Numbered from the stretch's first letter, positions 38,740-59,876 are shown. The stretch is DNA of 64,000 nt from Nitrospirota bacterium (GCA_963790205.1 CAWBNQ010000005.1:192001-256000), one strand, 5' to 3'. Notes: generated from the sequence alone by a model not told the origin. Made by a program: numbers and translations.

Positions 38740-38871
38740 TGTCGAACTCGGGGATTTTTCATCCTCAAACAAGAATTTTGATTAACTATTTCAAATTTTT
38801 CACAAATATATTTGCTTGAGAAGTATGTCAACAGCGGTGATCAGTGTCACTATTCCCATCATTTGGCCAAA

Positions 38872-39162
38872 ATGGCCACGGCATGCTTCCCCTCCACGAT
38901 TGGCCTGCAGTTGCTTCCCCACGCGTTCTGCACAGCTTCAAAAAACAAAAAGTCGTTAAGAATATAAGATAATTTTTTCACGATTCCACTATTGGCCAAA
39001 GGATGCTTCCCCTCTAAGCTTGGCCAAAGGATGCTTCCCCTGTCTCATACGAATCGTAAAAGCGAACTGTATGTGTTGAATAAATCAAGAACAGCAGCAG
39101 GTTCATGCACTATTGGCCAAAAGATGCTTCCCCTCAAGGCACAGCCGATAGATGCTTCTTCC
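38872..39162 (+). repeat. Three pairs of ~22-bp direct repeats, consensus TTGGCCAAAGGATGCTTCCCCT
   Basis: Copies start near 38872/38900, 38992/39020 and 39113/39141; 28-bp spacing within pairs, 120-121 bp between pairs. Confidence 0.85.
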
Positions 39163-39164: not shown

Positions 39165-39418
39165 TTTCAGGGTTGGGTTTTAACAAGAGGATCCAGTTAA
39201 TCTGCCCGGCTACTTGCCCACTTGATCCATAAATCCAATTCGCTGCCAGCTTCAATCTTTCCATATCTTTTGATTGCTTCCTTTGTTACTGCCTTAACAT
39301 ATTCACGGATCAGCTTGCTTTTGCTCCAGTTGTCGGCTTCTTCTAAAAGGGCATCCAGCTTTGCCTGTTCTTTTTTGGACAACTTTGCAAAGGAGTAGGT
39401 GTAATTATCGCTTGTCAT
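39165..39418 (-). pseudogene. C-terminal remnant of an island-associated hypothetical protein
   Basis: ...W.KWA...AD*LDPL: TAA interrupts an AD-x-LDPL motif. Confidence 0.5.
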
Positions 39419-39456
39419 TTCAGAGCTCGGTAGTCAGAATACTGTTTGTTTAACTT

Positions 39457-40401
39457 TCACATACTGAGTTGCTTTTTGAATTCAGCTAGTGAATGAACAT
39501 AGCGTCGGCTACCAGCATTTTCAGCCGCTTGCAAAATAGCCTTGTCAGTAGATACAAGATGTAACTCTTTATTATCGTCACCTATCATCTGCCCAACGCC
39601 AAATGCGATCTGCATATCCCAAATCCAATTTCTTCGTTCCGGCTTATCTATATTACAACCTGTTTCGACAATCCTTTTTAGTATTTCGCGATAAAGCTGT
39701 ATTGATGTATTAAATTTACCTGAGATCCATTTGGCTTTGGCAGTTATATCGGTTGCGGATTCGTTTCGTTTTGCTTGAACCATTGCTTTTATCACGAAGG
39801 CATGCGCAATGAATGAAGGCATTCCCCTTGAATTAATAGACTCCAGCACAACATTGCGGGTTGATTTATCATTTTCAAGAGGAGCCCACCCGGTCGTCGC
39901 TGGCTTGAGCTGTTGAACGACATACTGCCACATATCTGATACGAATTGAGTTTCAATTTGATCGAGGTGTGACTTTAGCTGCTTGCATTCAATGATTCTT
40001 TTTTCGTCTAGGACACCAGGAGTATTCTCATATATATAACGTGAAAGCTTCGCCAATTGTTCAGTTGTAGTGCTTGATTCAGGAAGGATAATATTGTAAA
40101 GGGCCTTCAAAACCAATGATTCAGAATCCATTATTGTTTTGAGCTGTTCGCCTGAAGAAATAGAACACACATGGTGTTGCGCTCTAAGAGCTAAGCGACA
40201 TTCATCATAATCTGGATCAGTTGTGTCGGCCAAGTGAGCAGCAAGCTCCATCAACACAAAGGGACTTGCATACGCGCCTATATTACGCGATTTCATCGCA
40301 ACTAAGTATTTTTCTATTTCAGCGATCGGGTCTATAACACTGTTTTTGTCTGATATATCGCGATATACGTTTGTGTCGAGCACTACAGCAATGTTATTCA
40401 T
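39457..40401 (-). CDS. PIN-like domain protein
   Basis: VVLDTNV, SPFVLMEL, N...D.QI, LVSTDKAI acidic PIN pattern with a large insertion. Confidence 0.65.
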   Translation of the reverse strand: MNNIAVVLDTNVYRDISDKNSVIDPIAEIEKYLVAMKSRNIGAYASPFVLMELAAHLADTTDPDYDECRLALRAQHHVCSISSGEQLKTIMDSESLVLKALYNIILPESSTTTEQLAKLSRYIYENTPGVLDEKRIIECKQLKSHLDQIETQFVSDMWQYVVQQLKPATTGWAPLENDKSTRNVVLESINSRGMPSFIAHAFVIKAMVQAKRNESATDITAKAKWISGKFNTSIQLYREILKRIVETGCNIDKPERRNWIWDMQIAFGVGQMIGDDNKELHLVSTDKAILQAAENAGSRRYVHSLAEFKKQLSM

Positions 40402-40476
40402 TTACTCCATCCTTTTGCTAATCAGGCAATTTAAATTAATTGTATTTAGTCGAGTCAAGAGAGCACCGATATGGGA

Positions 40477-40962
40477 CTAGAGTAAATACTCTGTCACGCT
40501 AACACCTTGCAACTTCTCAGGAAGGACATTTAGTGATAGAAAAAATCGAGCAAGTACCACGCGATGGTTGCCGTCTTCAATAAAGTAGTCGTTACCCACT
40601 TTAAAAAAACTCAGTTGATCCTTCGGCGTACGGCTAAGATAGTAGCCTGGATTTGAATGAAGCTCCTTTAACCTTTCCCAGCCTCTTTTCAGGCGACCTT
40701 CTAGCCCACTGAGAGTCCTATTGCAGTTGTCTTCCTCTGTGTAGAGACGATAATCCGAAGGTAAGAGCTCTAACCAGGAATAGCCAGCATAATCACCGTG
40801 TGTCGTGCCGACCACTGCGGATAGAGGTACTGTCCCAGCCTTTATACGGTTAGAGCTTTGATCAAGATATTTTGTGTGATCAAAACTCAATACCTTATTG
40901 AAGGCGAAGTCAGGTGGCCCTTGATTCTCAAGCAATTTGTGGATATCTGGATCGCATATCAT
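40477..40962 (-). CDS. ParB/sulfiredoxin-like protein
   Basis: VPLSAVVGT and YFIEDGNHRV motifs; start uncertain. Confidence 0.6.
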   Translation of the reverse strand: MICDPDIHKLLENQGPPDFAFNKVLSFDHTKYLDQSSNRIKAGTVPLSAVVGTTHGDYAGYSWLELLPSDYRLYTEEDNCNRTLSGLEGRLKRGWERLKELHSNPGYYLSRTPKDQLSFFKVGNDYFIEDGNHRVVLARFFLSLNVLPEKLQGVSVTEYLL

Positions 40963-40969
40963 TAGTTTT

Positions 40970-43042
40970 TCATAGCGGCAAGGACCTGATAGCGCTTGCA
41001 TCCACTACCCCTATATTTCTGCCTAGAAGCATTTCGGAAGACTTCACAGCATTCAGCTTCTGCTTAACATACCGTTTAATTTGAAGTTCTTTTGGAGGAG
41101 CGGTCGTGGTCGTCAATACATACTGAAATGGACAGTCCGTAGGGCCGCCAAAGTGTTCTTGCAATGAAGCGACAAAACGAATAAAACTCTTGTAAATGCG
41201 CAGACCAAGATCAGCCTCACGCGGGCTATCATGGAGAAGGAAGCCGGGCATACATGCATTGTCGGATACAGTATTGTAGATAAGAGAAGCAATATCCGTT
41301 AGGAGCACAGACAACGTTTCTACGGCTTCACCGGTCATGGCTGGCCCGTGAGTGATCGAGAACGCCAATTCACGTTTATCGAGACTTACTTTGCCATCAT
41401 ATGTGCCAGAAGCAAGCACGGCTTTAACAGAAGCAGAGAAGATAGCAGCCAACAAATCACGACTTTCATTGTGTCCCGCAAGAAGCTTTGTCAGGCGCTG
41501 TTCCAACTCTTTAATTTGGCTGGCAGTGTTTTCCTGCTTTTTTCGGCACTCGTCAAGTTCCTTATTAGCGCCAGCCTGATCCCGTTTTGTGTACCCTGTT
41601 TCCAACCCCTCGTATTTCTGCCCTAGTTCTCTTAGCCGACCTTGTCTCCCCTGGATATCGGACTGTATATCAGTTCTCTTTACGTGATATTTGTGCCGCT
41701 CAGTTTTGTGAGCATCAATTTCTCTCTGAATATGCTGTTTTTGCAGGTCAAGATTCTGCTGAGCCTCTACGCGCTGTTCTTGCTTCTGTTTTATCACCTT
41801 TGCATCTTGATGCTGCTTGATCTCAAATAAATTACGCCTTCTCTTAACATGACCACAATCACGATAAAGCACACCTCCGAGCGAGCAAGTCTGATCGCTA
41901 TACTCGTCAAATGCATCAACATTCTTCTGATTTTTACTGAGGCTGGCATCCAATTCTAGAACTGCTGCCTTTTCCACATTAAACGTATTGTCAAGGATCT
42001 TAAGACGCGCCTCAAGCTGCAAAATCTTACCACCATAAAAATCGATCTTTTCTTGATTTGCCGTCTCTTCCTTTTTAAGCAGGGCAATCTCGGTTTCTAC
42101 TTTTTCGGTAGCATTTTTCGTTAGAAGGCTTAGATCAGGCAGTAGATTTCCAGAATGCAGCGGCATCTCAGATATTTGCCGTTCATCAGGCAATAAATCT
42201 TGAAGGCATTTTCGCAATTCTGAATCAAGTCGGTTTATCCAGTATTGCGGCTCTCGCTTGAGTTTTTCATATTCTTTTTCCAAGCTATCATAATTTTGCT
42301 TGAGCGTTACCAGATTCTCCTCGCCTTTCAGCTCATCAGGCAAGAATAAGCCTAACACCGTCCGCATCATGAACAAGGGGTCTGCTTTTGAAGACCTAAA
42401 GGCAGGGGTTTCTGATTCGCTACGAGGTGATCGCCATTCGTGGATATTTTGAAAACGAGACTCCTGGTCGCGTGTACACCATGAGAGGACATGTCCCCAC
42501 TGGATAGGCTCTCCAGCCCGAACAAAAGCGCCTGCGCCTGTACCAAGATCATCAAGCAGCCCATCGAGACCAAGAAGTTCAGTATACGTTTCCACGTATG
42601 CGGGCCTCGAACGGTCCTGTAGAATATCCTCAACGGCTGCGTCTTCTTTGATATATGAATTTCGACCCTTACCTATCGGCCGCAAAACTCCCCACTTTTT
42701 CCCCTTCACGTGGATTTCGGCTGCAATGTAGCCACTTGGAAAAGCATTCTGAATCAATTCGGTGTTGGCCCGTGTTCCATAAGTTTTTTCACCAAGAACA
42801 TATCGCACGAAGCGACAGAAAGTCGTCTTTCCCGCGCTATGACCGGATATTTCAGCCGATGGATCATCGTCCTCGGTCTCCTCTGCCCAAATGATATTAA
42901 GCCCACGTATAAGCTTAATATCACGAATCGTCACAGGATCAGGAGCAATCCGCTCAAAAATGGCTAGACGACTGATCCAGACATTGGGTTCCGTTTTTTT
43001 TGGTTTAAGTTTTAGATCTTTGAAAATATCCATATCCGTCAC
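40970..43042 (-). CDS. SMC-like coiled-coil ABC ATPase (ABC-three-component/Lamassu LmuB-like)
   Basis: Walker A GHSAGKTT, long coiled coil with central C..C (CSLGG..RDC), Walker B FLLHDSPRE, FQYVLTTT. Confidence 0.75.
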   Translation of the reverse strand: MTDMDIFKDLKLKPKKTEPNVWISRLAIFERIAPDPVTIRDIKLIRGLNIIWAEETEDDDPSAEISGHSAGKTTFCRFVRYVLGEKTYGTRANTELIQNAFPSGYIAAEIHVKGKKWGVLRPIGKGRNSYIKEDAAVEDILQDRSRPAYVETYTELLGLDGLLDDLGTGAGAFVRAGEPIQWGHVLSWCTRDQESRFQNIHEWRSPRSESETPAFRSSKADPLFMMRTVLGLFLPDELKGEENLVTLKQNYDSLEKEYEKLKREPQYWINRLDSELRKCLQDLLPDERQISEMPLHSGNLLPDLSLLTKNATEKVETEIALLKKEETANQEKIDFYGGKILQLEARLKILDNTFNVEKAAVLELDASLSKNQKNVDAFDEYSDQTCSLGGVLYRDCGHVKRRRNLFEIKQHQDAKVIKQKQEQRVEAQQNLDLQKQHIQREIDAHKTERHKYHVKRTDIQSDIQGRQGRLRELGQKYEGLETGYTKRDQAGANKELDECRKKQENTASQIKELEQRLTKLLAGHNESRDLLAAIFSASVKAVLASGTYDGKVSLDKRELAFSITHGPAMTGEAVETLSVLLTDIASLIYNTVSDNACMPGFLLHDSPREADLGLRIYKSFIRFVASLQEHFGGPTDCPFQYVLTTTTAPPKELQIKRYVKQKLNAVKSSEMLLGRNIGVVDASAIRSLPL

Positions 43043-46000
43043 CTATGCAGCAAGTGCATATTCTTTGTGTTGCTGATCAAAGATGTGGAGAATAGCCTGT
43101 TGTTCCGGCGATATTAACAAATCGGTCCTGATAGTTTTTATCTGTGCAAGTGCCTTAAGAGCGTATTTAACAACCGCTTCAGCCCCTTCTGGAAATATCT
43201 TCTTTACTTTGAGCAAGTCGAGCCCGCTGTTAATCGTCTGTTCAGCCTGTGCACGTATGATCACTACTGCTTTATGCTGCTCCAGATGACCACGGCAGTC
43301 ACTCCACCGGATTGACTGACCAGTTTCAACAAATAGTCCGCGTGGGGCAGATGCGACCGCCTTTCTGAAACCAGCATGATCTTTCTTATCAAGAAAGGTT
43401 TTGCACCACTCTGGATGAGTAGCCAGAAGTAGAGCGTCAAGGTGATCCATGCTTGATAGGACACCCGCGTATTCCACAATTGATAGCGCAGCTGCACATA
43501 TAGTCCTGTCTGAGACGTTTGCGGGATAGGATGTTGCGGCCAGAGCATCAACATCGATGTCCGGAAGCAATGGCAGGAAGAGACTCTCTGGTCCAACGAT
43601 CTTTACTTTTCGAACTTCCTTTTCTTCCCATAGGCCAGCATTTACCTCTTGCTGGTGAATTTCGTAATTCCGCTTTAAGAGACGCTTAAGTACTTCTTGG
43701 CGAGCACCAGGTGAAATAGTGAACCGAATACGGTCGTTTTCAGAGAGGGTATCGATCTCATAGAAATCATGCCCCAGACTGAGGTTGTTCCAGCCGTAGG
43801 CATCTCGGATAGCCTCATCTAGTTTTTGGTGTAGATAGCGCAGTTCTAGGATGCCTTTATAGCCCGCTTCGGATTCCGCAAGAGTCTTCATGCTGACCTT
43901 GGCAACCGATGAGGGAGTCATGCCTCGGTCATGAAACAGGTTGTATATATCAGTCAGACCCAGCCAAAGTTGACGCATGAGAGTGCTACGATGATCATGG
44001 TAGCGATTACCTATAGAGGTTAGTCCGGCGTTAGTCGTTTGCCACAGTCCTTCAGGAAATGGAAATGTATCAAAACATTTAGATGGCGAATAACGCAAAT
44101 CCTGTTTCAGTGCACCGCTGTATTTACGTGCCCAAGCTTCGTGAAAACCTGACTGGACGACTGCATAGAGATCCCATCGGTCGGTGGTGAAGACTTTTAG
44201 GGCATGAGAGAAAACGATATTTGTTGGGGCCGCAGAGAAGCTAAGGTACTTCGTTGTTGCTGCAGCAACAAAACAATGGGGTAGCCCTTTGATTTTTGAG
44301 GTCATTTCCATGCGCGGCCGAAGGAATATCCACCATTTGCCTTTAGCACCTTTATCATGCTCTTTTTCACGCATTGGCTTTACGCGGTCTTCGACAATCT
44401 TAATCGGTTCAGAATACTTCTGTGCTCTTTCTAAGGGCCAATCGAAAAAATTAATGATTTCTCGCTCAGGTTGCTGTTCTGGATGATTATTAAGTTCATG
44501 CCCGTTGATGATAGGAAAGATTACATCACGATTACGAGGATCCCTATCAATCATACGGCGCGCTTCGTCGTGGTTCAATAAAAAGCCGTCCCCCTGCCAC
44601 TTAGCTCCCTCGTAGAGTACGTCTGCATTCTGTTTCAAAACAAGGGGCGCATCGGTGTCCTGTGAATCCTCAAAATAGGCATTGATCACTGACACTTCCC
44701 GATTGTCAATGAAACATTTGCCCCTCCATTGCCCCTTATGAACGCCAACGAGAGAAACTATTATGTTAGCGCGACCAGGCCACTTAATGCCACGTACAAC
44801 AAAGTTTATTGCGCCCCCCTGAACTATCACCTGCTCAAGCCCGTCTTTTCTGATGTCACCATCCTTGATTGAGTTGGTTGTAATTAGGGCAGTGATGCCG
44901 TCTGGACTGAGCAGAGTGTAAATACGTCGAACGAAATACGCTACCAAATCGCTCAATCCGGTCGGGGCATACTCCCACTTGACGTAATTGCAGAAAGAAT
45001 AGCCGTAAGTACCGCTCAGATGGGTTCCGCCCAAATACGGCGGGTTACCAAGAATGCAATCGAAACCGCCTCGTTCAATGATGTCTGGAAATTCTAGAAA
45101 CCAGTGGAAGAAACGTTTACCATGAGCTATCGACCAAGCCTCCGCAGTCGATTGTCCCTGAGGATGACGCTCTCCAGACCAGTAGAGACGGAAATCGCTA
45201 TCGGTGGTTAGTTTTGGCTGGTTTTCAGTCGTTTTGGGCAAGTAAAACTGAGCAATAGGAATGGCTGCGATTTGTTCGAGCAGTATGGCGTCAGTACTAT
45301 TTGTAAACTCTATATAGCGCTGCTTCTTAATGTCGAATTCGGAAGGTGTCCGATCAGGCAAATTAGAAAGCTCACGCCAACGAGTTAGGACGGCATCACG
45401 ATGCCTCAGAATTTCCGAAGAGTAATTGAGTGTTACCTGCTTTATATTTGCGCGATCTGATTTATTGCGCCTGCGGAATGCCACTGATATGTCTTTGTCA
45501 TCACCAGGCATGGTGATGAATGCCTCATCAGGCACGCCTCTAATGACGTCCTCCCAACGAGCATAGCCGACAATTGCATTGCCGCACTTGATATGATGAT
45601 CAAGGAAGTTGAGTGGCTCTCCAGGGTTGTGGGCTTCCAGCCAAAGGGCAACTTTGCAAAGTTCCACCGCGAGTGGATTCAAGTCCACACCGTAGATACA
45701 TTCACGGATTACGTCCCGAACAGCTGTGCGAAAGGCCGCTGGTGATGGTTGCTCCTCACCTGTGCGGACAGCAGCCAGTTCCGTAGCAATTCGCCGGGCA
45801 GCAGCCAGCAGGATATGACCGGATCCACAAGAGATATCTGCCACACGTAAGGAAAGCAACGCTTTTTCACGATCCGATTCCTTGAGCTTGTCGGCAATAA
45901 GATAATCAAGGGAATGCTTGATTAAAGGTTGAACCAGATCATCCGGTGTGTAGTGGGAACCGGTAACAGCGCGTTGATCGCCCGGCGCGAAATCGAACTC

Positions 46001-47326
46001 CACCACGCCTTCGCTTTGAATAAATACGGGTTTATATTCCAGTAGCCCCTCATAGACTGAGCCAAATTCTTCGACATTGAGAGCGGCGTAGTTGACGCGG
46101 ATCACCTGACCTGTGTCAGGATGCTGGTAAAGACCAAGCGAACGCAGACAGCCGAGGAGCACATCATTGCCGAGGGTGCAGCCACCGAGTTGACCGATGG
46201 CAAAGGGGCTGAACAGGTCCCCTGCCAACGGTGCGATTCCAAGTTTTTGACCAGGACCACCGGCTTCAAAAAGACGAAAAGTAGTCAGCAATGAAAGCCA
46301 ATGGTCATTCTTGCGGCGGTCGGCTAAATAACGCTTCTCGGAGAGGCGGCGCAGGCGCTGGAGGCTGTAGTAGTGCTCGTATATATCTCGTTTAGAGGCG
46401 TCCGACTTTACGGGAAAGACAAGGCCGCGCTCCTCGATCACCATCAGGAAGAGGAGGCGATAGATCAGCCGTAGCAGGTGTTGGTAGTAGGCATCAGGTT
46501 CCAGTTCGTCGGAGACCACTGTTTGACGAAGTGAATCGTTGGCGGGATGAGCAAGAAACCCATTTGCAAATTCACGGATAGCACTCTCGACCGCACGGCT
46601 CAAACCATCGCGGATGCGCGCGCCGGAATCAAGGGAGTCTTGGTGATAACGCTCAATAATGCACTCTGCCGAAGTTTCGGGCGAGACAGGCAGCCTTGAT
46701 GCATGCAACAGTCGATAAAGAACAGCAAAATCGGCAAACAAACCGTCGTTGAAGATCCTATCAAGATCGAACTCCAGGTAGGTCAGTTTGACAAGTCGCG
46801 AACTATCACGCAGCAGACGAAGCACTCGGCCGTTTGTTACAAGACCGTACAGTCCATCCGTAAGGTTGAGATACTCTTGCACCATTCCATGCGCAGACAT
46901 GCGTAGGACGGCTTTTTCGGGCTTCCTATCCAGCCCCGCCGGCTCGCGATAACCGACGATATGAACTGGGATACGTCCACGATTACTAAGACGGTGGGAG
47001 ATAGCATAAGTCTTACCATTCAATTCCACGCTCTTTTGCTGGTATTCAAGCTCGTAGCCAAGCAAAGAAAGAAACGGGACTACCCAGAGACTGCGCGTTT
47101 CCGTCGTGGCTGGATTATCGACTTTGACCGCTTCCAATTTTCGCTGAAAAATACGCCAATAGTCCTGTGCATCAGCCCAGGCACGGACAATTTCATCTTT
47201 CACCTTTCTGGATGAGTCGAAACCAAAGTCTAGCGGACGTTGGCCGTTAGCTTCTTCGAGCCGAGTCAGAATGTCAGGTGAAAGGATGGCTCCTTCTATG
47301 CGGATGCTTGGATAGTTCATAGGCAT
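43043..47326 (-). CDS. Large N6-adenine DNA methyltransferase (Eco57I/type IIG, DrmMI-like) with an extra C-terminal domain
   Basis: EEFGSVYEGLL, GSHYTP, DISCGSGH, IYGVDLNP, GNPPY, RYSPS.CF.TFPFP TRD. Confidence 0.9.
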   Translation of the reverse strand: MPMNYPSIRIEGAILSPDILTRLEEANGQRPLDFGFDSSRKVKDEIVRAWADAQDYWRIFQRKLEAVKVDNPATTETRSLWVVPFLSLLGYELEYQQKSVELNGKTYAISHRLSNRGRIPVHIVGYREPAGLDRKPEKAVLRMSAHGMVQEYLNLTDGLYGLVTNGRVLRLLRDSSRLVKLTYLEFDLDRIFNDGLFADFAVLYRLLHASRLPVSPETSAECIIERYHQDSLDSGARIRDGLSRAVESAIREFANGFLAHPANDSLRQTVVSDELEPDAYYQHLLRLIYRLLFLMVIEERGLVFPVKSDASKRDIYEHYYSLQRLRRLSEKRYLADRRKNDHWLSLLTTFRLFEAGGPGQKLGIAPLAGDLFSPFAIGQLGGCTLGNDVLLGCLRSLGLYQHPDTGQVIRVNYAALNVEEFGSVYEGLLEYKPVFIQSEGVVEFDFAPGDQRAVTGSHYTPDDLVQPLIKHSLDYLIADKLKESDREKALLSLRVADISCGSGHILLAAARRIATELAAVRTGEEQPSPAAFRTAVRDVIRECIYGVDLNPLAVELCKVALWLEAHNPGEPLNFLDHHIKCGNAIVGYARWEDVIRGVPDEAFITMPGDDKDISVAFRRRNKSDRANIKQVTLNYSSEILRHRDAVLTRWRELSNLPDRTPSEFDIKKQRYIEFTNSTDAILLEQIAAIPIAQFYLPKTTENQPKLTTDSDFRLYWSGERHPQGQSTAEAWSIAHGKRFFHWFLEFPDIIERGGFDCILGNPPYLGGTHLSGTYGYSFCNYVKWEYAPTGLSDLVAYFVRRIYTLLSPDGITALITTNSIKDGDIRKDGLEQVIVQGGAINFVVRGIKWPGRANIIVSLVGVHKGQWRGKCFIDNREVSVINAYFEDSQDTDAPLVLKQNADVLYEGAKWQGDGFLLNHDEARRMIDRDPRNRDVIFPIINGHELNNHPEQQPEREIINFFDWPLERAQKYSEPIKIVEDRVKPMREKEHDKGAKGKWWIFLRPRMEMTSKIKGLPHCFVAAATTKYLSFSAAPTNIVFSHALKVFTTDRWDLYAVVQSGFHEAWARKYSGALKQDLRYSPSKCFDTFPFPEGLWQTTNAGLTSIGNRYHDHRSTLMRQLWLGLTDIYNLFHDRGMTPSSVAKVSMKTLAESEAGYKGILELRYLHQKLDEAIRDAYGWNNLSLGHDFYEIDTLSENDRIRFTISPGARQEVLKRLLKRNYEIHQQEVNAGLWEEKEVRKVKIVGPESLFLPLLPDIDVDALAATSYPANVSDRTICAAALSIVEYAGVLSSMDHLDALLLATHPEWCKTFLDKKDHAGFRKAVASAPRGLFVETGQSIRWSDCRGHLEQHKAVVIIRAQAEQTINSGLDLLKVKKIFPEGAEAVVKYALKALAQIKTIRTDLLISPEQQAILHIFDQQHKEYALAA

Positions 47327-50202
47327 GCCTCGGCATTCCCGCCATCAGGGAGGAGAATGTAAACACCGAGAAGATCCATTGGCAATACCGGATAAACGAC
47401 CTGAAAACGTTTTGCATCCATAAGTGAACTGAAACGTTCATGGGATTCGACGAGCCGCTTTGATTGTTGCTCGGCAACCTTATCGAACTCTCCTCTTAAA
47501 TTATCAAGAAGTTTAAGTTCGTTTTCCAAGAAACCGGTGCGCGCCTGTGGGGTGAGTTCGGAAGACGCACGGGCCTCGGCCAACAAAACCCTTGCCTGGC
47601 CGTGTTCGAGAAACTCCTTGTCCTGCGGTGTGCCGCGCCATCCCCAGAGCAGCATTTCCTCAGCTACGATCTGGTGTTCACCTTTGCTCTGCTCTATCAC
47701 GTTGCGACATCGGAAAAGCAGCAATGTAGTCTTGGTCTTTACCTGCTTGGTGCGAATGATGGCTGCGCGCGCCGCACATTTATCCACGCGAGCGAGGGTA
47801 TTGGCCATGACAAGCTGACAAAGTTGTTCTACAAAACGGTGGTTACGCCCCAGGTAATGGTAGCCATCGGACGTGGGTGACCGGAAGCTTACTTTGACTG
47901 GATCGCCTTGTGGCAGTAAATCCCTCAACTGGGGCGACATGTTACCCATGACGATTCGGTAACCCTTGGCATCCTTGGTGACCTGCACACCAAGCAGGTT
48001 GTTCAGAACAGAGGTCACGAACTCTTCCACTGCTTTGGGATCGCCTATGGCTTCATCCATCTCACGAAGGTCAGCTTCGATCTCTTGAGCCTTAATGGCA
48101 TTCTGGGCGAAGATGCTACGGGATGCCTTTTCTCTCTCTGCGGCTTCGTCAACTTTGCGGGTGACACTTGCCTTAGCCGAGGCGGCTTCATCAAAACTAC
48201 TGAAGTCGAATTGGATCTGGTGCTTATCACGTTTTTTTTCGATCTGGCGATCAGGATTGAGCAGCAAGGCCTGGGTAATCGTGTCTATGATACTTTGAGA
48301 ATCCTCTGGAAAAGGAACATTGATGCCGGTAGCGCGCTTGATCTCGCGAACCTTGCGTAAGAGCACATCGAGAACGATGCCGTCTATCGGGTTATCCGCC
48401 CCGTAGAGTAGACAAGCCTTTACCTTCGGGGCCATCTGGCCGAATCGATCCACGCGGCCTTCTCGTTGCTCAAGCCGGTTCGGATTCCATGGCAAGTCGT
48501 AATGGAGAACACCGGTAAAGTGTTCTTGCAGATTGATACCTTCGCTCAGGCAGTCGGTTGCAATTAAGATGCGCAACTGAGACTTTCCCATTGCATCTAT
48601 GTGCTGCTTGCGCAGCTCGTCAGGAAGTTCACTCGTTATGACTTGAAGGTCGAGCTTCGGATACTTCTTTTTGAGCGCCGTTTCGAGTTGTGCGCCGATA
48701 TAGTTAGCTGTGGCGATATAACGGCAGAAAACAACTGGGTTGAAGCCTTGCTTTAACCAGTCTTCCAGAATCAGTTCGGCTGAAGCAAGTTTTTGGTCAT
48801 CTTTGATCGAGCTCAATTGCTGCAGTTGCTGGGAGAAGTACCGCATGCGTTCGCGTTGGTGTTTTGTCCAATCATTCCGCTCGATGACCTGAGTGGGCGC
48901 GTTGTCACCTTCGAACCCAAATTCAGTATCACGAACTGGGTTTTCCTCAAACGTTTCCTCACCCGCTAAGGCAGTTTCTGCGTCATCTTTCGCAGCAGAT
49001 GCGAGGTTAGAAAGCCTGGTGTTGAGCATCTCGATACCAGCAGCGGGGCTAGACATCACACCACGCAATAGTGCGAGTGCAGTCCAATATTGGACCCGCT
49101 TCTGGACGCCTCGTTCGGAGTCCGGAGCGATTAGCTTACGAGCAAAGTCGAGGATTTCGTCAAAAAAGTGAGAATAGCTGGTTGAGAGGTCATAGGCCCA
49201 CTCGAAAGCTTCACGCTCAGGGAATGGCGTGTCTTCCCCCATCCATTTTTCGACATCGGCCCGCTTGCGCTGAACAAAGTGACGTGCCAGATCGCGGCGC
49301 TGTGCTTGCGAGGAACTGGGAAGGTCAATCATCTCGAATTCCGGACTGAGCAGGCCGAGCAACGAATGAAATTCCTCGGGCTTCCCGCTGTGCGGTGTGG
49401 CGGTGAGCATGATAAGCTGCTGGTTCGGCTTCTCGGCGATTCTGCTGACAAGATGGTAGCGTTGTTGCTGGCTGGCAGAAGCGCCGGTAGGCCGTGCGCA
49501 GGTATGGGTTTCGTCCACGATCACCATTTCTGGACACTGCTCGACAAATACATCGCGCCTGGTATCGGACTTGATGAAATCAATGCTGATGACTTGGTAA
49601 GGATAGTAATCATAGACACTTGTGTCACCCTGTATCTGCCGGTCGAGTCGTGCCTGGGTGTTGGAGCGAATGATGACCGCCTCAATATCGAGCTTAGCAC
49701 GAATCTCGGCCTGCCACTGTTCGCAGAGATGAGGCAGACATATTACGGCAAAGCGTTTGATCTTGCGTCGCTCCAACAGTTCTTTAACGATGAGCAACGC
49801 CTCTACTGTCTTTCCTACACCGACATCATCGGCAATGAGCAAACGTACCGATTCCTGACGCAAGGCCATGATAAGCGGCACCATCTGGTAGGAACGCGGC
49901 CGGAAGGAGAGTTTTGCCAGGGCGCGAAACGGGCCGGCGCCGTTGCGAAAAGCCAAACGAGCGGAGTCATAGAGCAAGCGGGCTGTGCTGATATCTCCGA
50001 GGTCCAATGCCCCTGGCGACGGAAAGCTCGCATCCTCGGGTTGGTCGGCTTCAATGCCCAGCGGCAGATAAATACCTGCGGTTTCATCGTCAGAGCCACC
50101 AAGCGGTTTGACGATCAAAAGATCTTTATCATCTGATGGGAGGACGATCCAGTCGCGTCCACGGAGGGAGACTAACTTTCCCGGTTGAAGTTGTACTGTC
50201 AT
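47317..50202 (-). CDS. SNF2-type helicase (DrmD-like)
   Basis: DDVGVGKT, DETH, TATPH, YDLPWNPNRLEQREGRVDRFGQ. Confidence 0.9.
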   Translation of the reverse strand: MTVQLQPGKLVSLRGRDWIVLPSDDKDLLIVKPLGGSDDETAGIYLPLGIEADQPEDASFPSPGALDLGDISTARLLYDSARLAFRNGAGPFRALAKLSFRPRSYQMVPLIMALRQESVRLLIADDVGVGKTVEALLIVKELLERRKIKRFAVICLPHLCEQWQAEIRAKLDIEAVIIRSNTQARLDRQIQGDTSVYDYYPYQVISIDFIKSDTRRDVFVEQCPEMVIVDETHTCARPTGASASQQQRYHLVSRIAEKPNQQLIMLTATPHSGKPEEFHSLLGLLSPEFEMIDLPSSSQAQRRDLARHFVQRKRADVEKWMGEDTPFPEREAFEWAYDLSTSYSHFFDEILDFARKLIAPDSERGVQKRVQYWTALALLRGVMSSPAAGIEMLNTRLSNLASAAKDDAETALAGEETFEENPVRDTEFGFEGDNAPTQVIERNDWTKHQRERMRYFSQQLQQLSSIKDDQKLASAELILEDWLKQGFNPVVFCRYIATANYIGAQLETALKKKYPKLDLQVITSELPDELRKQHIDAMGKSQLRILIATDCLSEGINLQEHFTGVLHYDLPWNPNRLEQREGRVDRFGQMAPKVKACLLYGADNPIDGIVLDVLLRKVREIKRATGINVPFPEDSQSIIDTITQALLLNPDRQIEKKRDKHQIQFDFSSFDEAASAKASVTRKVDEAAEREKASRSIFAQNAIKAQEIEADLREMDEAIGDPKAVEEFVTSVLNNLLGVQVTKDAKGYRIVMGNMSPQLRDLLPQGDPVKVSFRSPTSDGYHYLGRNHRFVEQLCQLVMANTLARVDKCAARAAIIRTKQVKTKTTLLLFRCRNVIEQSKGEHQIVAEEMLLWGWRGTPQDKEFLEHGQARVLLAEARASSELTPQARTGFLENELKLLDNLRGEFDKVAEQQSKRLVESHERFSSLMDAKRFQVVYPVLPMDLLGVYILLPDGGNAEACL

Positions 50203-53200
50203 CGCACCTTCCTGAAAATATCCGGACGGGCTGCTATTTTCTCGGCCAGGCTATCCCGATAGTAGTATACCCAGACTTCATCGCCGCGGGCAATGATGGA
50301 CTGACGCTTGGATTCATCATCCTCCCGAACCTGCGGTTCATCGTGGGGGGTGCCGTCGCAGAAGACCCAGATACGCGGTTCGTAGTAAAAGTCCGGTTGC
50401 ACATAAATGCCATCAACACGCTTCTGAGCTGCGTCGGGCAATCGCAGGCCATTCTGATAGAGGTAATCCAGGAACTTTCGCTCTGTCGACGATGTGGGAT
50501 CGAGTCCTCGGGAGATGGTTTGATACTGGTCCTCGTAGCTGCCGAATCCTGTATTCGTCTGGATCTCAATATTACAGATGCGCAATTTCTCAAGAGCGTC
50601 CTTGATGAGATGTCGGTCTATGATCTTATGGTCGCGCTGGTTGTAGTAACTCAGAAGATCGTCATAGCTTGCCGGTCCTTTGTAGTTCTCATCGTCGTAT
50701 CGGCACAGAGTGATCGCCTGCTCTACGACTTTATGAAAAGCCTCCACGTCTTCAACAAATTGCGAAAGGATACCAAGGCTGCCTTCTGCTGCTTCATAGA
50801 GAAGGATGTTAGGCGCTTCAGGATCACCCACAGTGACCACACCGATCTCATTGGGCTCGGCCTGGAACACGCTTTCGATGGCGCGCTTCAGCGCATGCTG
50901 CAAGGTGATGACACCCTCGGGATTCAGTCCAAGTGGCTGTATCGGCTCGATATGCAGTGCATCGGCCAAATTCGAGGTCCAGAGCTTAACGAGTCGGAAT
51001 TCCTCTCTTGGATTTTCCTCCGGATCCGGCATTGAGTCTCGCCAGTCGCCGGATACCAATCCGATGGGGAAACCCTCGGCCTGTCGCGATCGCCACTGAT
51101 AATTGACATGAACCAGACGAGCCGCAGGCACGTAACGAAGATTCAGGAAGTTATTTTCAGCCGTACGCGCCGCGGCTTTACGCACGCGCTCCAGATGGCC
51201 GCCATCAACGGAGAAATAGGTCCTGATATTGTACCCGCGGGATACCCGCTCTTCCTCTTCGCAAGAAATCCGGTCAACCTCTTCGGCGCGCGACTCGGCC
51301 ATTTCCAGCAGATCATGAAGATGTTCCTTATTTGCGTTATCAGCGAGGTTGCAGCCGGTGAAAGGACAGATTTCGAGATCTTTCTGCTCATCCGTCAGGA
51401 AGTACCCGGCTTTTGTGCTGATCTTCACCTCGGTCAGTGCGGACTCCGCGTCTTGGACCACTAATTGGGTAACTTTGTATTTACGGCCGTTATGGTAGAT
51501 ACGGTTTAGTGGACCGAACTCTCGCATAGCAATGGCGCGCGGACGCGAGATGAACTCGCCGGAGGCATCGCTGGTGGGTAGGAAGATACGAAGCGGCAAT
51601 CGGGTGAAATTGTACCCGGGCAGAAACCCTTCCGAGGCCAGGTATCTATAGGGATAAAATTCGGATAATTCTGTTGACCTGCCAAGGTCGTTACGCAGAA
51701 GATCAAGCTGGCGGGTGGCCTGATCCTGGTTTCTCTTTTGTTTTTTGTAGTCGTCACTGCCCAGACCAAGTGTACCACTTTCGATCTTCTGTGTAGCCTT
51801 TGTAAGGATCGTTCTAGCCGAGCGATATAGTTTTCTCCAACGGTCAATAGCTTCGTTAAGATGATCAGCCAGTTTTGACAAGTTATGTTCGACCCACTGA
51901 TCCGAATACCAGCTTGCAGCCTTTGTCTCGAGCTCGGGAGCAAAATCCCTGATCACTCTCCTGAATTCTGCCTTGAGCGTGTTGAACTGGTTCGGCTGAA
52001 TGCTGAGGCCGGAGCGAACCGCAGGTGTAAGCGGCATCTTATCGTTGTCATCAACGATGAACCGCATAATAGACGGCCGGGCTTCTCCCTGAGCTTCCAG
52101 ACCAGGCAGGCCGATCTCAGATACGGTTAGGGCGTTCAGGTGCGTCAGCAATAATTCGCGATTACAGAGATCGAGACGAGGAGCCTGTACCACTCCGGCT
52201 ACGAGTTCAGCCTGGTGCTGAAAGTAGTGACGGTCATGAGGCGAGTAGCTTGAGCAGTAGGTGAATACCAGCGCACCTTGTCCGCTTCGCCCCCCACGGC
52301 CTGACCGCTGGGCGTAATTCGCAGGATTGGGAGGCGCATTGCGGAGATGCACAACATTCAGACCGCCAATATCGATTCCTAATTCCATGGTTGGCGAACA
52401 AAACAATGCGCTTACCGATTCACTTCGAATACGCTTTTCATCAAGCTCCTTCTTGGCTTCGTCGAGATACCAATCGGCACGAAAGCGGTCTTCCCTATCC
52501 AGACGGGCTTCGGTGTTCAATTGCCCAGTATGATCTTCAGCTCGCAGCCTTTTAGTCAAAGAGAAGTCGCGCCGGTACATATCTCTGAAAAACGCATTCG
52601 GCCTGGGTGTTTGGTCCTTGTAAGAGCGCCGCTTTATAACGTCGGACTTTACTGTTTTGCCATCGCCGAGCTTCCAAACGATCTTCTCGATCTTGAGGCG
52701 ATAAATCGGTATTTCTTCGTTCTTATCGCTGCGTGCGAGTTGAGACTTGAGATAATCCGCCTGTTCCAGCTTCGTCATCAGCTGGACAATGAAGTTCCGA
52801 TAGTGGTCGCCCTTAAGATTAATCTCCAGCCCACGTTGCCGGACATAGAGTTTAATGAACTTGCCCAGCGCACTGGCCGGTCCCATGCTTTTTGAAAAGA
52901 GTTTTGCGGAGCGGTGCAGTGGCTCATAGCGGATGACAAAAGGTTCCCGTAATCGCTCTTTCTGGTCCAAGGTCCAGGGAGGACGCAGCATCTCAATGAA
53001 CTGCTTTTCGTTTTCTCTGATCGCATTCTGTGTAAGATAGTTCTCGCTATGGATGGCGTATTCAAGGCGGAAGAAATCGAGAATCGTGCAGACAAACTCT
53101 CTGCGGTCGGCATGACTTAAAGCGCTCAAAAGCGGAATGTCCCGCCAGAAGGTATCCTCTGCAGCGACTTCATCCAAGTCCAGATATTCTATGGATAGCA

Positions 53201-55364
53201 AAGCGCATTGCTCCAAGTTCGGCAGGATGATTCGCCAGCTTCGCCGTAGATCCGCAATAGCGCGGTAGAATAAGTAAGTCTGGAAGCACTGCTCATATCG
53301 TCGTCTGACATTTGCCAGCGGCGGCTCTACGTTGGGGGTAGAATAGTCCAGAAACGACAGGCCAAGCGCTCTAAATACCGCCTCGCCAAGATTGGCATAC
53401 GTGAGGGTATTCCCGGAAGCTTCGTGAAGAGCTTTGTAAATGCCGGCACGAAGGCGGACCACTTGCACGAAATCGTTGAAATGACCGGCCTGGAGCGCGG
53501 CATCTTGTCTGTTGTCGGTAAAACTCAGCAGCTTTTGATCTTTCGGACGATATCCGGCATCATTCAGCTGATTAAGGATCGAGAACGCCATAATGGTCGT
53601 TGAGGTGCTGCGTCCCTCACTGCCCAGTTTTGTCAGCTTTGTACCTTCGTTCGTTTTCGTGTCAAAGAAGACACCGCCTGTTGGGTCAAAAAGCAGTGGG
53701 GCCTTCATGAACCATCCCCACCATTTCAGAGGTTTGGTTTCAGAACAATTTCCAAGCTCATCAAAATGGAGCTTAACGGGAAACAAGGTTTTCTTTTTCG
53801 AATCCGGAACCGGTCCGTTTTTTGTCATTCTCAGCCAGGAGTCCGGCAAAAATTCGAAGTCCTCGGCTAGTTCCCAGACATCTTCGCCGACAATGAGATA
53901 GCCATCTGTCGCTTCTTCATCTTCTTCTGTTTTTTCCCGAAACTCTCGCGGTTCCAGCCGATTGCCGACTCTGGACACACATATGAACGCATGTCCCGTG
54001 GCCCGGCTGAACACATTTGGAAAGAGAGGCTTTTTGTCCCCTTCGTCCTTTTTGAAGATACCCGGCTCCAGAGTAACATAGCGATTCTCGTCCTGATCGA
54101 GTGTAGTATAGACCGATCCTGTTTGAGAGATGAACTGATGCAGTTTAAAAGGTAGGATCGTGTAACGTTGCCTGGCTTCCTGCATTCGTTTGTTCACGAT
54201 GCTGATCCACTGCATAAGATCGACGAGGAACTGTCTGCAGATCGTTTCTGACAACCTGGTTTCTTGCATCAGCATAGCGACGATCGTGCCGATCCGCTGG
54301 GGGGTGCGCCGAATAAGATGGCCATCGTGCGTATCCAGCGCGACATTATTTTCAATCCAGACAGCAACGGGGTTGGCCTTCAAACGCTCAATGTCGTCTT
54401 CTGCGTTAATACCCGCCTTTATGGCTGCGGCGAGCTCCGCGCCCGATGGCAATCTACCGGAGAATGACACCGAACGGGCCAAAGTCTCGTTTATGACTTG
54501 TTCCGGCGTAAATGGCTTACCAAAAAGCGTAGTGGCAACTTTAGCGACCTGTTCGCGTTGCGAAGCGGGACTCCCGACGGAAACCATAGTGGCCGAGGTA
54601 CCGATGCAGGTCACCTCTCGGCTGCATTTGGAGCGGATGCGGCGGATCAACATAGCCACATCAGCGCCTTGGCGTCCACGGTAGGTATGGAGTTCGTCGA
54701 AAACGAGAAAACGCAGGTTGCTGTATATGGAATCACGAATGGAACGCTCCCGAACGCGAGTCAGGAGCAATTCCAGCATCATATAGTTGGTCAGGAGAAC
54801 GTGCGGAGGATTCTCGCGCATCTTTTGGCGTGCCTCTTCCTTCTCCTGTCCGGTATATTGCCCAAAGGTTATTGGGAATCCTCTCGCGCCGCTTTCGTAA
54901 TTAGCTTTGTAGCGGTTAAACTCTTCCGATTGAGAATTGATCAGAGCGTTCATCGGATAAACCACGATGGCTGTTACGCCCGATGTCCCGGGATGGGAGA
55001 GCAAATGGTGGAAGATCGAGCCTATATAGGTCAGAGACTTGCCGGATCCCGTACCAGATGTGACGATGAAATCCCTGCCTGCGGTCCCAAGACGTATTGC
55101 TTCAACCTGGTGCCGGTACAGTGTATATCCTTTAAAGATGTCCGCCGTGTCGGCATGTAAGGCGCCGGACCGTGCAAGATCCGAGACGCTGCCAGACATC
55201 TCGTATGCGGGGTTAAATTGCAAGAGAGGCTCGGGCCACAGTTTACCAACGCGAAGATCCCCTTCTACTACCGCCCGTAAAGTCGGATCGGCAATATTAA
55301 GGAAGCTGCGAATATAGGTCGCGTAGTCCGAAACGATATGCGAGTGCGTCTTGAAAACGTTCAT
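50199..55364 (-). CDS. DEAH helicase + DUF1998 + C-terminal DUF559/Vsr-like nuclease
   Basis: GTGSGKS, DELH, SAT, FTDNRQDAA, QRSGRGGR, HAL..AI..LYE..EG..G, PDFYY....VFCDG.PHD. Confidence 0.9.
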   Translation of the reverse strand: MNVFKTHSHIVSDYATYIRSFLNIADPTLRAVVEGDLRVGKLWPEPLLQFNPAYEMSGSVSDLARSGALHADTADIFKGYTLYRHQVEAIRLGTAGRDFIVTSGTGSGKSLTYIGSIFHHLLSHPGTSGVTAIVVYPMNALINSQSEEFNRYKANYESGARGFPITFGQYTGQEKEEARQKMRENPPHVLLTNYMMLELLLTRVRERSIRDSIYSNLRFLVFDELHTYRGRQGADVAMLIRRIRSKCSREVTCIGTSATMVSVGSPASQREQVAKVATTLFGKPFTPEQVINETLARSVSFSGRLPSGAELAAAIKAGINAEDDIERLKANPVAVWIENNVALDTHDGHLIRRTPQRIGTIVAMLMQETRLSETICRQFLVDLMQWISIVNKRMQEARQRYTILPFKLHQFISQTGSVYTTLDQDENRYVTLEPGIFKKDEGDKKPLFPNVFSRATGHAFICVSRVGNRLEPREFREKTEEDEEATDGYLIVGEDVWELAEDFEFLPDSWLRMTKNGPVPDSKKKTLFPVKLHFDELGNCSETKPLKWWGWFMKAPLLFDPTGGVFFDTKTNEGTKLTKLGSEGRSTSTTIMAFSILNQLNDAGYRPKDQKLLSFTDNRQDAALQAGHFNDFVQVVRLRAGIYKALHEASGNTLTYANLGEAVFRALGLSFLDYSTPNVEPPLANVRRRYEQCFQTYLFYRAIADLRRSWRIILPNLEQCALLSIEYLDLDEVAAEDTFWRDIPLLSALSHADRREFVCTILDFFRLEYAIHSENYLTQNAIRENEKQFIEMLRPPWTLDQKERLREPFVIRYEPLHRSAKLFSKSMGPASALGKFIKLYVRQRGLEINLKGDHYRNFIVQLMTKLEQADYLKSQLARSDKNEEIPIYRLKIEKIVWKLGDGKTVKSDVIKRRSYKDQTPRPNAFFRDMYRRDFSLTKRLRAEDHTGQLNTEARLDREDRFRADWYLDEAKKELDEKRIRSESVSALFCSPTMELGIDIGGLNVVHLRNAPPNPANYAQRSGRGGRSGQGALVFTYCSSYSPHDRHYFQHQAELVAGVVQAPRLDLCNRELLLTHLNALTVSEIGLPGLEAQGEARPSIMRFIVDDNDKMPLTPAVRSGLSIQPNQFNTLKAEFRRVIRDFAPELETKAASWYSDQWVEHNLSKLADHLNEAIDRWRKLYRSARTILTKATQKIESGTLGLGSDDYKKQKRNQDQATRQLDLLRNDLGRSTELSEFYPYRYLASEGFLPGYNFTRLPLRIFLPTSDASGEFISRPRAIAMREFGPLNRIYHNGRKYKVTQLVVQDAESALTEVKISTKAGYFLTDEQKDLEICPFTGCNLADNANKEHLHDLLEMAESRAEEVDRISCEEEERVSRGYNIRTYFSVDGGHLERVRKAAARTAENNFLNLRYVPAARLVHVNYQWRSRQAEGFPIGLVSGDWRDSMPDPEENPREEFRLVKLWTSNLADALHIEPIQPLGLNPEGVITLQHALKRAIESVFQAEPNEIGVVTVGDPEAPNILLYEAAEGSLGILSQFVEDVEAFHKVVEQAITLCRYDDENYKGPASYDDLLSYYNQRDHKIIDRHLIKDALEKLRICNIEIQTNTGFGSYEDQYQTISRGLDPTSSTERKFLDYLYQNGLRLPDAAQKRVDGIYVQPDFYYEPRIWVFCDGTPHDEPQVREDDESKRQSIIARGDEVWVYYYRDSLAEKIAARPDIFRKVR

Positions 55365-55573
55365 GGCAAATCCAGAATCCCTGATACATTCTTGAGTTCT
55401 TTTGCGGTGAGATTGCGGGACTGCTCGGTCGTCTTCCAGGGGAAGTTTTCAAGCAGCTCCCTCGCTTCAATGGAGAGGGCTTCGGCGAGGCTCTTGGGAT
55501 CGTGGAATTGCGCCCAGTCACGCTCGTTTCGGTATGAGATGATCTTTTGCTGGACGGATGAGAACTCAGCCAT
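55361..55573 (-). pseudogene. Truncated MazG-like nucleotide pyrophosphohydrolase
   Basis: ERDWAQFH.PKSLA.ALSIEA.ELLE.F.W is present, but the second E..D motif is missing (70 aa). Confidence 0.7.
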
Positions 55574-55856
55574 GTATCTCCTGCAAAAACTGTTATATAT
55601 GGGCAATTATTTGGAAAACTTTACTACAACTGGGTGCAAAGGGCAAGTAAAGAAACGGGCAATTTTGGGGGGATACGCATTTGACGGCTTTGCTGGCTTA
55701 TACTATAAAATAAAAAAATCTCGAAAGATGTTAGAGAAAATGGCGAACAACTAAAAACAATCTAGAGGGGTTCAACCAGCTGCTTTTTTATCAAGATCAA
55801 AATTAGAGTCAGCTGCTAAGCGAACGTGTGCACGCTAGCAGTTTATGATAAAAATC

Positions 55857-56900: not shown

Positions 56901-57277
56901 TTCTTCCTTCGCTTTCGTTTTTTTTCCTCCGACTCGTCAGCTCTTTTTTTCACACGGGCATTGTGGAGTTCATACGCGTGCAGCATGTCCCGCACTTCTA
57001 CCGTTTTCTTAGCGACAAAGAGCTTGTTCTGGAGCTCAGCGATTTGCTCCTGTAAACGCTGTTTCTCCTCGTCCTGCGGTATACTCGGCCTTCCAGGGGA
57101 TTTATCCTCCATGGCCTCGGTCATCGCCTGTAATGCCCGGCGCTCCCACTCGTAGTAGGTCTTCCGCGACACGCCGAGCCTCCGTGCGCCTTCCTCGGCC
57201 GTGATCTGGCCGCTGCGCACTGCAAACACCACCGCAGTCCGCTTTCGGGCAAGCTCCTTGTCTTCTGAGTCGCTCAT
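56897..57277 (-). CDS. HTH protein of the transposon
   Basis: A..LGVSRKTYYEWE.RAL..M...PGRP + coiled coil. Confidence 0.85.
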   Translation of the reverse strand: MSDSEDKELARKRTAVVFAVRSGQITAEEGARRLGVSRKTYYEWERRALQAMTEAMEDKSPGRPSIPQDEEKQRLQEQIAELQNKLFVAKKTVEVRDMLHAYELHNARVKKRADESEEKKRKRRKK

Positions 57278-57294
57278 GCACACCGACCTTTCCG

Positions 57295-59727: not shown

Positions 59728-59876
59728 TAAGCCGTTGCGCGCCACGTCGCTATGGGATTTCAAATGATTTGTCAGCTTAAAACGAAGTCCGCGGAGACAG
59801 CATTGGCAGGGGCGTGAGACTTGTTCGGGTGAAAAGCGGCGATTCCGGACTGCTCCGCAAGCCCCTTTCGTAAAAG

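Follow-up and report, generated by a model that had tools for sequence, protein, structure and literature searches.

An ARMADA Type I operon of a Nitrospirota bacterium with a Lamassu-like SMC ATPase and a putative LmuC-like tail on its methyltransferase

A 64,000-nucleotide (nt) stretch of a Nitrospirota bacterium genome (GCA_963790205.1 CAWBNQ010000005.1:192001-256000), the whole of which is called the window here, contains a candidate defence locus at positions 39,457 to 55,573. Four of its genes are the subject of this analysis: two helicases and a methyltransferase (MTase), which by sequence make up ARMADA Type I, a known phage-defence system, followed by an SMC-type (structural maintenance of chromosomes) ATPase that resembles LmuB of the Lamassu systems. 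The MTase, ArmB, ends in an in-frame extra domain, the tail, that is gained and lost jointly with the ATPase as one unit. The features of the four genes, with protein lengths in amino acids (aa), are as follows.

50199..55364, minus strand: armC, a YprA-family SF2 helicase with a fused DUF1998/MZB region and a C-terminal Vsr-like nuclease motif, 1721 aa (Pfam, PADLOC, motifs)
47317..50202, minus strand: armA, a SNF2/RapA-like helicase, 961 aa (Pfam SNF2-rel_dom and Helicase_C)
43043..47326, minus strand: armB, the MTase, whole open reading frame (ORF), 1427 aa
43565..47326, minus strand: armB core, a predicted type IIG/PglX-like N6-adenine MTase with target-recognition domain, residues 1 to ∼1254
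43043..43564, minus strand: ArmB tail, an in-frame extra domain of ∼173 aa, residues ∼1255-1427 (AlphaFold2 model, co-occurrence with the ATPase)
40970..43042, minus strand: LmuB-like SMC/Rad50-type ABC ATPase, 690 aa from a GTG, 687 aa from ATG 43033

An earlier note, made from the sequence alone, had described seven co-oriented ORFs with tight junctions, and this layout was verified. All seven lie on the minus strand, with 4-nt overlaps at 55361/55364 and 50199/50202, a 10-nt overlap at 47317/47326, and an MTase stop codon that directly abuts the GTG of the ATPase at 43043/43042. The motifs named there for the ATPase (GHSAGKT and LLHDSPRE), and NPPY of the MTase as well, are present at the expected places. 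The true start of the ATPase is probably ATG 43033, as Met4 is nearly invariant and a database copy of the protein has 687 aa. Scans of the locus for promoters and terminators gave nothing above chance level. The GC content of the defence island is below that of the genome (0.55), and third codon positions have a GC content (GC3) of 0.57-0.58 in both helicases and 0.49 in the core of the MTase, against 0.425 in its tail and 0.428 in the ATPase.

The assignment of the core draws on domain content, gene order and listed relatives. The 1721-aa protein matches DEAD, Helicase_C and MZB (DUF1998) in Pfam, the last of these at residues 1488-1553 with 28.2 bits against a cut-off of 24.2. The pattern PDF..CDG..H, which we take to be a Vsr-like nuclease motif, lies at residues 1657-1675 and recurs in 57 ArmC-like ORFs; the last 133 aa of ArmC have no nuclease match in Pfam or PHROG. 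The four-cysteine zinc site of DUF1998 (ArmC residues 1554-1577) is reduced to about one cysteine across the whole ArmC clade, both with and without the tail and ATPase, and the usual cysteines are retained at locus L157. The 961-aa helicase matches the NCBIfam model DISARM_DrmD at 303 bits, under the model cut-off of 610. The MTase matches Eco57I, N6_Mtase, MmeI_Mtase and MmeI_TRD in Pfam as well as DrmMI and REase_MTase_IIG in PADLOC, and has NPPY at residue 761. ARMADA Type I is defined, in the accessible part of the preprint, by a YprA helicase that comes first and bears a fused Vsr-type nuclease, then a helicase resembling BrxHII and finally a PglX-like MTase (10.1101/2025.09.15.676423; Bell et al.). 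An OB-CON-DUF1998 region joined to the helicase and, within ArmC, BrxA-like, zinc-binding beta-barrel and MarR-like insertions also belong to the description of this type. The three window genes come in the same order, with a BrxHII/SNF2 helicase between the YprA helicase and the PglX-like MTase. Its ArmC is 68-73% identical, over the ArmC part present, to the proteins of loci L001 (73), L002 (68) and L027 (72), and Table S1 (PMC12458937) has the contigs of these three loci and of L023 under ARMADA Type I helicase; in it, at least three of the six accessions queried in one look-up were found. By way of these listed relatives, and hence indirectly, the window ArmC falls in the ARMADA I clade.

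The earlier note had read the locus as a DISARM-like hybrid. The coupling of a methylation-based restriction core to a Lamassu-type SMC ATPase stands, and the core itself is ARMADA Type I, not a DISARM variant, given the helicase fused to DUF1998 and a predicted nuclease, the missing phospholipase D (PLD) gene and the gene order. The helicase-DUF1998 fusion and the lack of a PLD gene had been pointed out in that note; both are borne out, and they are features that define ARMADA Type I. The PADLOC run it had proposed returned the DrmMI match on the MTase, and no operon protein matched DrmB or DrmC. The top matches of the large helicase were DruE, with DrmA reaching only E 1.6e-11; a DruE best match for ArmC is what is expected for ARMADA, as far as the accessible text on the system goes. 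DISARM class 1 was accordingly rejected as the identity of the core: the window shares with it a DrmD-like SNF2 helicase and a DrmMI-like MTase, but has no separate DrmA and DrmB genes and no PLD nuclease DrmC, and its helicase is closer to DruE. The ARMADA Type II arrangement (armA-armB-armC and then the GajB-like UvrD helicase ArmD) is also absent, the order in the window being C-A-B with no UvrD helicase after it. In the accessible part of the preprint, Type II is the only type assayed; it defended directly, without abortive infection, and required its MTase motif (10.1101/2025.09.15.676423).

The ATPase has its Walker A motif, GHSAGKT, at residue 67 and LLHDSPREAD at residue 602. The Walker B segment LLHDS lacks the catalytic glutamate, and its pattern hhhHDS fits the consensus of short Lamassu, given for LmuB as Gx4GK[ST] and hhhhD[QSTE] in the accessible part of PMC12663957. 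Cys386 and Cys396 are invariant and lie at the predicted apex of the coiled coil; no extra effector domain was found in the protein. At least 371 homologs were collected, and the ATPase motifs are invariant over an identity range of 26-61%. The AlphaFold2 model, with a pLDDT score (predicted local distance difference test) of 82.6, consists of an ABC head and a long coiled coil. Foldseek places YydD first (E 9e-18) and five Lamassu chains next (E 5e-14 to 7e-11), with another Lamassu chain and Rad50 ranked below, all at low TM-scores of 0.3-0.47. The PADLOC LmuB model PDLC03859 was matched by 44 of 46 aligned family members (best E 7.8e-22), and DUF2326 by nine of the 13 relatives scanned, one of them over the cut-off. 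By profile and predicted fold, the family is LmuB-like. On a Priestia plasmid, a Lamassu-like operon of three genes (L141; 247, 160 and 623 aa) has a Walker B region nearly the same as that of the ATPase; its 623-aa protein is above the DUF2326 cut-off, and its 160-aa middle protein weakly matches the class MC5. Searches of the PDB by sequence with the ATPase, the ATPase profile and the tail profile returned coiled-coil noise or nothing, and neither a second copy of the ATPase nor a DUF2326 match was found in the window genome. The PADLOC candidate family PDC-M68B was matched by four of the 46 aligned ATPases (best E 4.6e-17).

Two surveys, one anchored on each partner, describe how the tail and the ATPase occur together. 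The ATPase-first survey covered 54 genome loci around ATPase relatives, drawn from 80 of 433 confirmed matches. Of the 53 loci with a gene directly upstream, 43 had the end of that gene matched by the last 190 residues of the window MTase, and 47 by a profile built from those tails. Together with L002, where the tail lies one gene further upstream, and L003, where it was found in another frame, an upstream gene carries the tail in 49/54 loci. The remaining five comprise a contig edge (L030), an ATPase fragment (L036), an MTase extension unmatched by the profile (L047) and two loci in which no tail gene was seen (L037 and L044). A survey of these neighbourhoods had been suggested by the earlier note, and the homologs do stay beside such MTases. 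The MTase-first survey used metagenome loci picked by the ArmB core alone, with the tail excluded (80 of 576 matches); nine loci without the core end and six with less than 1000 nt downstream were set aside, leaving 65. Tail and ATPase were both present in 30 of these, both absent in 35, and no locus retained one half of the pair (Fisher p 3e-19). After residue 1222, ArmB continues for either 30-45 aa (35 loci, the ATPase in none) or 167-237 aa (30 loci, the ATPase in all), and both states occur within a single cluster at 85% identity, in which L121 has the module while L076 and L115 are without it. The first tail profile matched just seven of the 30 long tails; an alignment of 23 long tails (21 unmatched and two weakly matched) is homologous to that profile (hhalign probability 93.5%, E 2.4e-7).

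A FastTree phylogeny of 60 ArmB cores implies no fewer than 14 changes of the trait, of which well-supported branches force 11, and the states of tail and ATPase agree in 11/11 independent tree pairs (p 0.001). Across 61 loci, the identity of the tail follows that of the ATPase (rho 0.84; 0/500 permutations). The tail and the ATPase are gained and lost jointly, as one unit, and this module is optional, since 35 of the 65 close ArmB relatives do without it.

The pair does not co-diverge with the MTase core (core and tail, rho 0.05; core and ATPase, rho 0.00, 259/500 permutations), which would suit a reading in which the two are what remains of a Lamassu system without its effector, working or decaying alone, and the fusion to the last operon gene supplies expression only. 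Highly varied carriers, the two orphan ATPases of L037 and L044 and the effector-less Lamassu clade described in the accessible part of PMC12663957 are in keeping with it. Such a remnant is nevertheless very unlikely: nearly all loci have the two parts fused in frame, the ATPase motifs hold their invariance across the identity range given above, and none of the 65 loci has a single half. A convincing stand-alone tail is also missing, in that a search for one gave just two matches, each on a contig of ∼1 kb and hence weak evidence, and the 143-aa ORF beside a broken ATPase in L050, which may be a separate tail, does not convince.

The ∼173-aa tail does not figure in the earlier note, in which the SMC ATPase was said to have no stand-alone effector or middle gene. 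No stand-alone LmuC gene exists at the locus, in agreement with that statement; the tail, however, occupies the lmuC position immediately before lmuB and has the size of LmuC, so that the missing middle component is probably present as a fusion to the ArmB C-terminus. It is joined straight after the short linker that closes an ordinary ArmB, a low-complexity segment of 30-45 aa between the MTase core and the tail. Its AlphaFold2 model is confident (pLDDT 94.4) and predicts a winged helix that has helices inserted in it, plus two more at the C-terminus. The model was compared with 48,161 chains, with the 50 top matches listed. The top matches are generic winged-helix domains, with Z up to 7.6; the best three align over 84-89 residues. 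Of the 50 listed matches, Lamassu 9ny5 chain C has the longest alignment (Z 5.7, root-mean-square deviation (rmsd) 4.9, 127 residues, rank 48), and in a second run Lamassu 9uxh chain D was matched similarly (Z 5.8, rmsd 4.8, 126 residues, rank 49); both are 170-aa chains, taken as LmuC from their size. Foldseek of the tail model gave nothing at E≤0.001, and the ESM Atlas gave unnamed clusters only (0.87).

Profiles of the middle component (MC) were gathered for comparison with the tail. The best of four sets was MC3, the class of the Vibrio cholerae LmuC in the accessible part of the literature, at E 0.007-0.016, followed by MC5 at E 0.065 at best; the MC2 and MC6/8 alignments gave no match, and MC4 had too few members for a profile comparison. 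As controls, five other domains gave E≥0.059 against the tail, and the known classes MC3 and MC5 matched one another at E 0.029. The single middle gene of L141 gave E 0.13. Position, size, predicted fold and the weak profile signal make it plausible that the tail is an LmuC homolog.

The tail-ATPase pair is portable across restriction-type proteins. In DISARM class 1 loci (L022 and L049), DrmMI ends in the tail, the ATPase comes next, and DrmA, DrmB and DrmC lie downstream. A type I HsdS carries the tail with the ATPase after it (L043), and tailed HsdS proteins also occur as P0127 and P0133, without gene context. The pair is further carried by a type III Res subunit (L048) and by type IIG enzymes (L028 and L029). 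Beyond restriction, AbiL-like ABC ATPases (L020 and L026) carry the tail and are followed by the LmuB-like ATPase, in two-gene units of an AbiLi-like ABC ATPase and the LmuB-like ATPase (L020:8090-12064 and L026:8076-12073) beside which adjacent restriction genes were not seen. On plasmids, the four records examined of nine matched all have the order helicase-helicase-MTase-SMC/DUF2326, and the tail is present in 4/4. This range of carriers is a lower bound.

As the majority of carriers are subunits of varied DNA-cutting systems, the module might act after the cut, binding ends made by the restriction machinery and either blocking phage repair and passing the ends to the helicase-nuclease, or shielding accidental cuts in the chromosome of the host and assisting their repair. 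Protection of ends from exonuclease has been reported for LmuACB, in the accessible text of the Lamassu literature, and the recurrent gain and loss would be accounted for if the module were an optional extra by which any restriction system is improved or tamed. The AbiL-like carriers are left unexplained by such a role, however, and the known LmuB proteins are sensors upstream of an effector, which makes a function after cleavage rather unlikely.

The preferred reading is that the tail serves as a built-in LmuC that docks the ATPase dimer and thereby tethers a Lamassu-type sensor of DNA ends to the ARMADA restriction complex. Docking of the ATPase on the tail, taken by itself, is likely; the full tether has about an even chance of being correct. 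In Lamassu, the ends of double-stranded DNA are bound by LmuB2-LmuC, in which LmuC rests on the coiled coils of LmuB and contacts the DNA, as presented in the accessible parts of three sources (PMC12663957, 10.1101/2025.03.14.643221, 10.1101/2025.06.23.660979). According to the same accessible text, LmuA is released upon end sensing, via its own C-terminal domain, and LmuC remains on LmuB; this release is contrasted there with Mre11-Rad50, whose bound nuclease works only near the DNA end. In the ARMADA variant, ArmB would methylate host sites and read unmethylated ones, the tail would bind the ATPase coiled coils in the manner of LmuC, and the two together would bind free DNA ends or hairpins of the invader. 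The sensor would then hold ArmB, and via ArmB the ArmA/ArmC helicase-nuclease, at the sensed end. The outcome would be a local attack resembling that of Mre11-Rad50 instead of cell suicide, and the module would broaden the targets of the system, for instance by taking in phages with few recognition sites. No gene for an LmuA effector or Pfam match to an ABC-3C C-terminal domain was found in the operon, in a search that did not extend to these domain families elsewhere in the genome, and among the neighbours of the ATPase in 84 loci none recurs. With no releasable effector of the LmuA type found and the tail covalently fixed to ArmB, the sensor could not free a toxin, and a tether is favoured. 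More tentatively, and with somewhat less confidence than the tether itself, the LmuB and LmuC sensor may be a plug-in grafted C-terminally onto ARMADA, DISARM, type I, type IIG and type III systems, in which a tethered local nuclease replaces the released suicide effector and provides a second, site-independent trigger.

A sensor of this kind could also work as an escalation switch. On meeting DNA ends, it would release or reshape ArmB, whereupon the ArmC nuclease would attack all DNA or host methylation would stop, and a non-abortive system would become abortive. The Walker B motif without its catalytic glutamate, as in short Lamassu, and the AbiL-like carriers, which suit an abortive output, speak for such a switch. 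It is nonetheless unlikely, since Lamassu releases LmuA through that protein's own C-terminal domain and keeps LmuC on LmuB, and the 30-45-aa linker leaves no room for a domain of the LmuA type.

Several observations weigh against the tethered sensor. It assumes a complex of ArmA, ArmB and ArmC. The AbiL-like carriers are not restriction enzymes and so are unexplained by tethering to a nuclease. In the two myxobacterial loci L037 and L044, the ATPases (at 9950-11755 and 9953-11929, respectively) are shorter and an upstream tail gene was not seen. Joint transfer of adjacent DNA alone, without any contact between the proteins, can yield the co-divergence of tail and ATPase. The likeness of the tail to LmuC is weak, its Z of 5.7-5.8 at ranks 48-49 falling under the 7.4-7.6 of generic winged-helix domains, and the profile probabilities between the tail and the MC sets are just 3-5%. 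The second tail subfamily matched no LmuC set, and the tail has no MC or LmuC match in Pfam, PADLOC or PHROG. No PADLOC LmuB model was matched at E≤0.01 by the ATPase of the window itself, and none at E≤0.001 in the scan of the aligned family.

Comparison with described systems places the locus as a variant that joins two known ones, ARMADA Type I and Lamassu, by means of the ArmB tail and the ATPase, as judged from sequence. ARMADA Type I shares its gene order, the DUF1998 region fused to the helicase and the relatives in Table S1, and the window helicase has a Vsr-like motif where that type has its fused Vsr-type nuclease; but the window ArmB has the C-terminal extra domain, an LmuB-like ATPase follows as a fourth gene, and its clade has lost most of the DUF1998 cysteines. 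Short (type II) Lamassu/ABC-3C systems of the order LmuA-LmuC-LmuB, such as DdmABC of V. cholerae, likewise have an SMC-like ATPase of ∼600-690 aa with a deviant Walker B and apex cysteines, and a winged-helix-like domain of ∼170 aa encoded immediately ahead of it. Unlike them, the window operon has no detected LmuA or LmuA C-terminal domain, its LmuC-like domain is fused to a restriction subunit, and its apex cysteines are spaced C-x9-C versus CxxC. Mre11-Rad50/SbcCD offers a likeness in working only, as a nuclease-bearing machine joined to an SMC-like ATPase by a C-terminal domain and acting near a DNA end; the window has no Mre11/SbcD nuclease, and by Foldseek E-value its ATPase is nearer LmuB than Rad50.

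No published description of the tail-ATPase fusion was found; the paper that defines ABC-3C (Krishnan et al. 2020, doi 10.1093/nar/gkaa726) and the Lamassu supplements lay outside the coverage and could mention such fusions. The main text of the ARMADA preprint never mentions SMC, ABC, Lamassu, MazG or ParB (10.1101/2025.09.15.676423), no tail domain is entered in ARMADA Table S2 (PMC12458937), and the accessible parts of 10.1101/2024.01.29.577857, 10.1101/2025.09.30.679545 and PMC13463889 describe no such fusion. The module is common, as the 30 of 65 close ArmB relatives attest, and has been overlooked by current annotation. If the proposed mechanism is correct, the exchange of the end of one gene would let restriction-type systems gain DNA ends as a structure-based trigger, the Lamassu sensor could operate without a released toxin, and the module would illustrate a bacterial answer to phages whose recognition sites are avoided or hidden. 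The module offers a handle on target choice by ARMADA I. Natural pairs of close MTases with and without it (L121 versus L076 and L115) lend themselves to a test, and cultured soil bacteria have complete four-gene operons on their plasmids (NZ_CP049160, NZ_LR699555 and NZ_CP080527).

The remaining three ORFs of the locus flank the four-gene unit.

55361..55573, minus strand: MazG-like stub, 70 aa, truncated, overlapping the armC start
40477..41001, minus strand: ORF with a GNHR motif, ParB-like, 174 aa (162 aa, 40477..40965, if the start is ATG 40965)
39457..40401, minus strand: PIN-like protein, 314 aa

These genes had been proposed in the earlier note as parts of a seven-gene system whose SMC sensor would pass its signal to the PIN-like and ParB-like proteins, the possible abortive effectors. 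The shared strand, the tight spacing and a low GC3 (0.37-0.44) similar to that of the ATPase would agree with such a system, but it is exceedingly improbable, and membership of the three genes did not hold up. None of them has a tblastn match at E≤0.01 in 139 related loci, a search in which single sequences overlook remote relatives and the ATPase-centred loci end short of the MazG position. The genes downstream of the ATPase vary between loci, with no family present in more than five of 84 ATPase loci, and the ParB-like and PIN-like proteins are singletons in all-versus-all clustering. Both labels are motif-based only, neither protein matching Pfam, NCBIfam or PHROG at E≤0.01. The GNHR ORF, presumably ParB/Srx-like by its motif, matched no PADLOC family; its gene may start at ATG 40965, and it looks like a passenger outside the conserved unit. 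The PIN-like protein has only a weak Orf5 match in PADLOC (E 0.0011). In the ESM Atlas it falls among unnamed clusters (0.96, with the nearest PIN cluster at 0.87), an unnamed family of 320-330 aa that is commonest in Bacteroidota, and its gene was found in 0/40 related genomes; it looks like a passenger and is a candidate stand-alone defence gene.

The MazG stub matches the pyrophosphatase phrog_3301 of PHROG (E 6.9e-7). Contig C2 has a full-length paralog, of which the stub is a truncated copy with 89% nucleotide identity over 190 nt; the stub looks like a truncated remnant and a passenger. The paralog heads a cluster of genes of 367, 163, 804 and 863 aa (G000:C2:198597-205616), likely another defence cluster.

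Mobile elements and repeats surround the locus. Immediately upstream of the MazG stub lies a three-ORF insertion sequence with rve integrase domains (window 55827-58936), bounded by inverted repeats at 55827-55878 and 58884-58936, and its end sequence recurs at eight further sites in the genome with 98-100% identity. A further element, at window 59709-62263, is bounded by 33-nt imperfect inverted repeats and encodes a tyrosine recombinase (61201-62058) and an IS91-type Y2 transposase (59986-61179). At the left edge of the island (window 38857-39158), three 51-nt direct repeats are spaced 120-121 nt apart, and a 14-nt part of them is also present as inverted copies. Next to them, at window 39197-39433, lies an open frame of 78 codons that has no start and continues no frame upstream; it looks as if it were what is left of the C-terminal part of a gene since lost. 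A VapC-type PIN gene at window 62469-62888 (Pfam PIN, E 1.9e-16) probably belongs to a toxin-antitoxin pair.

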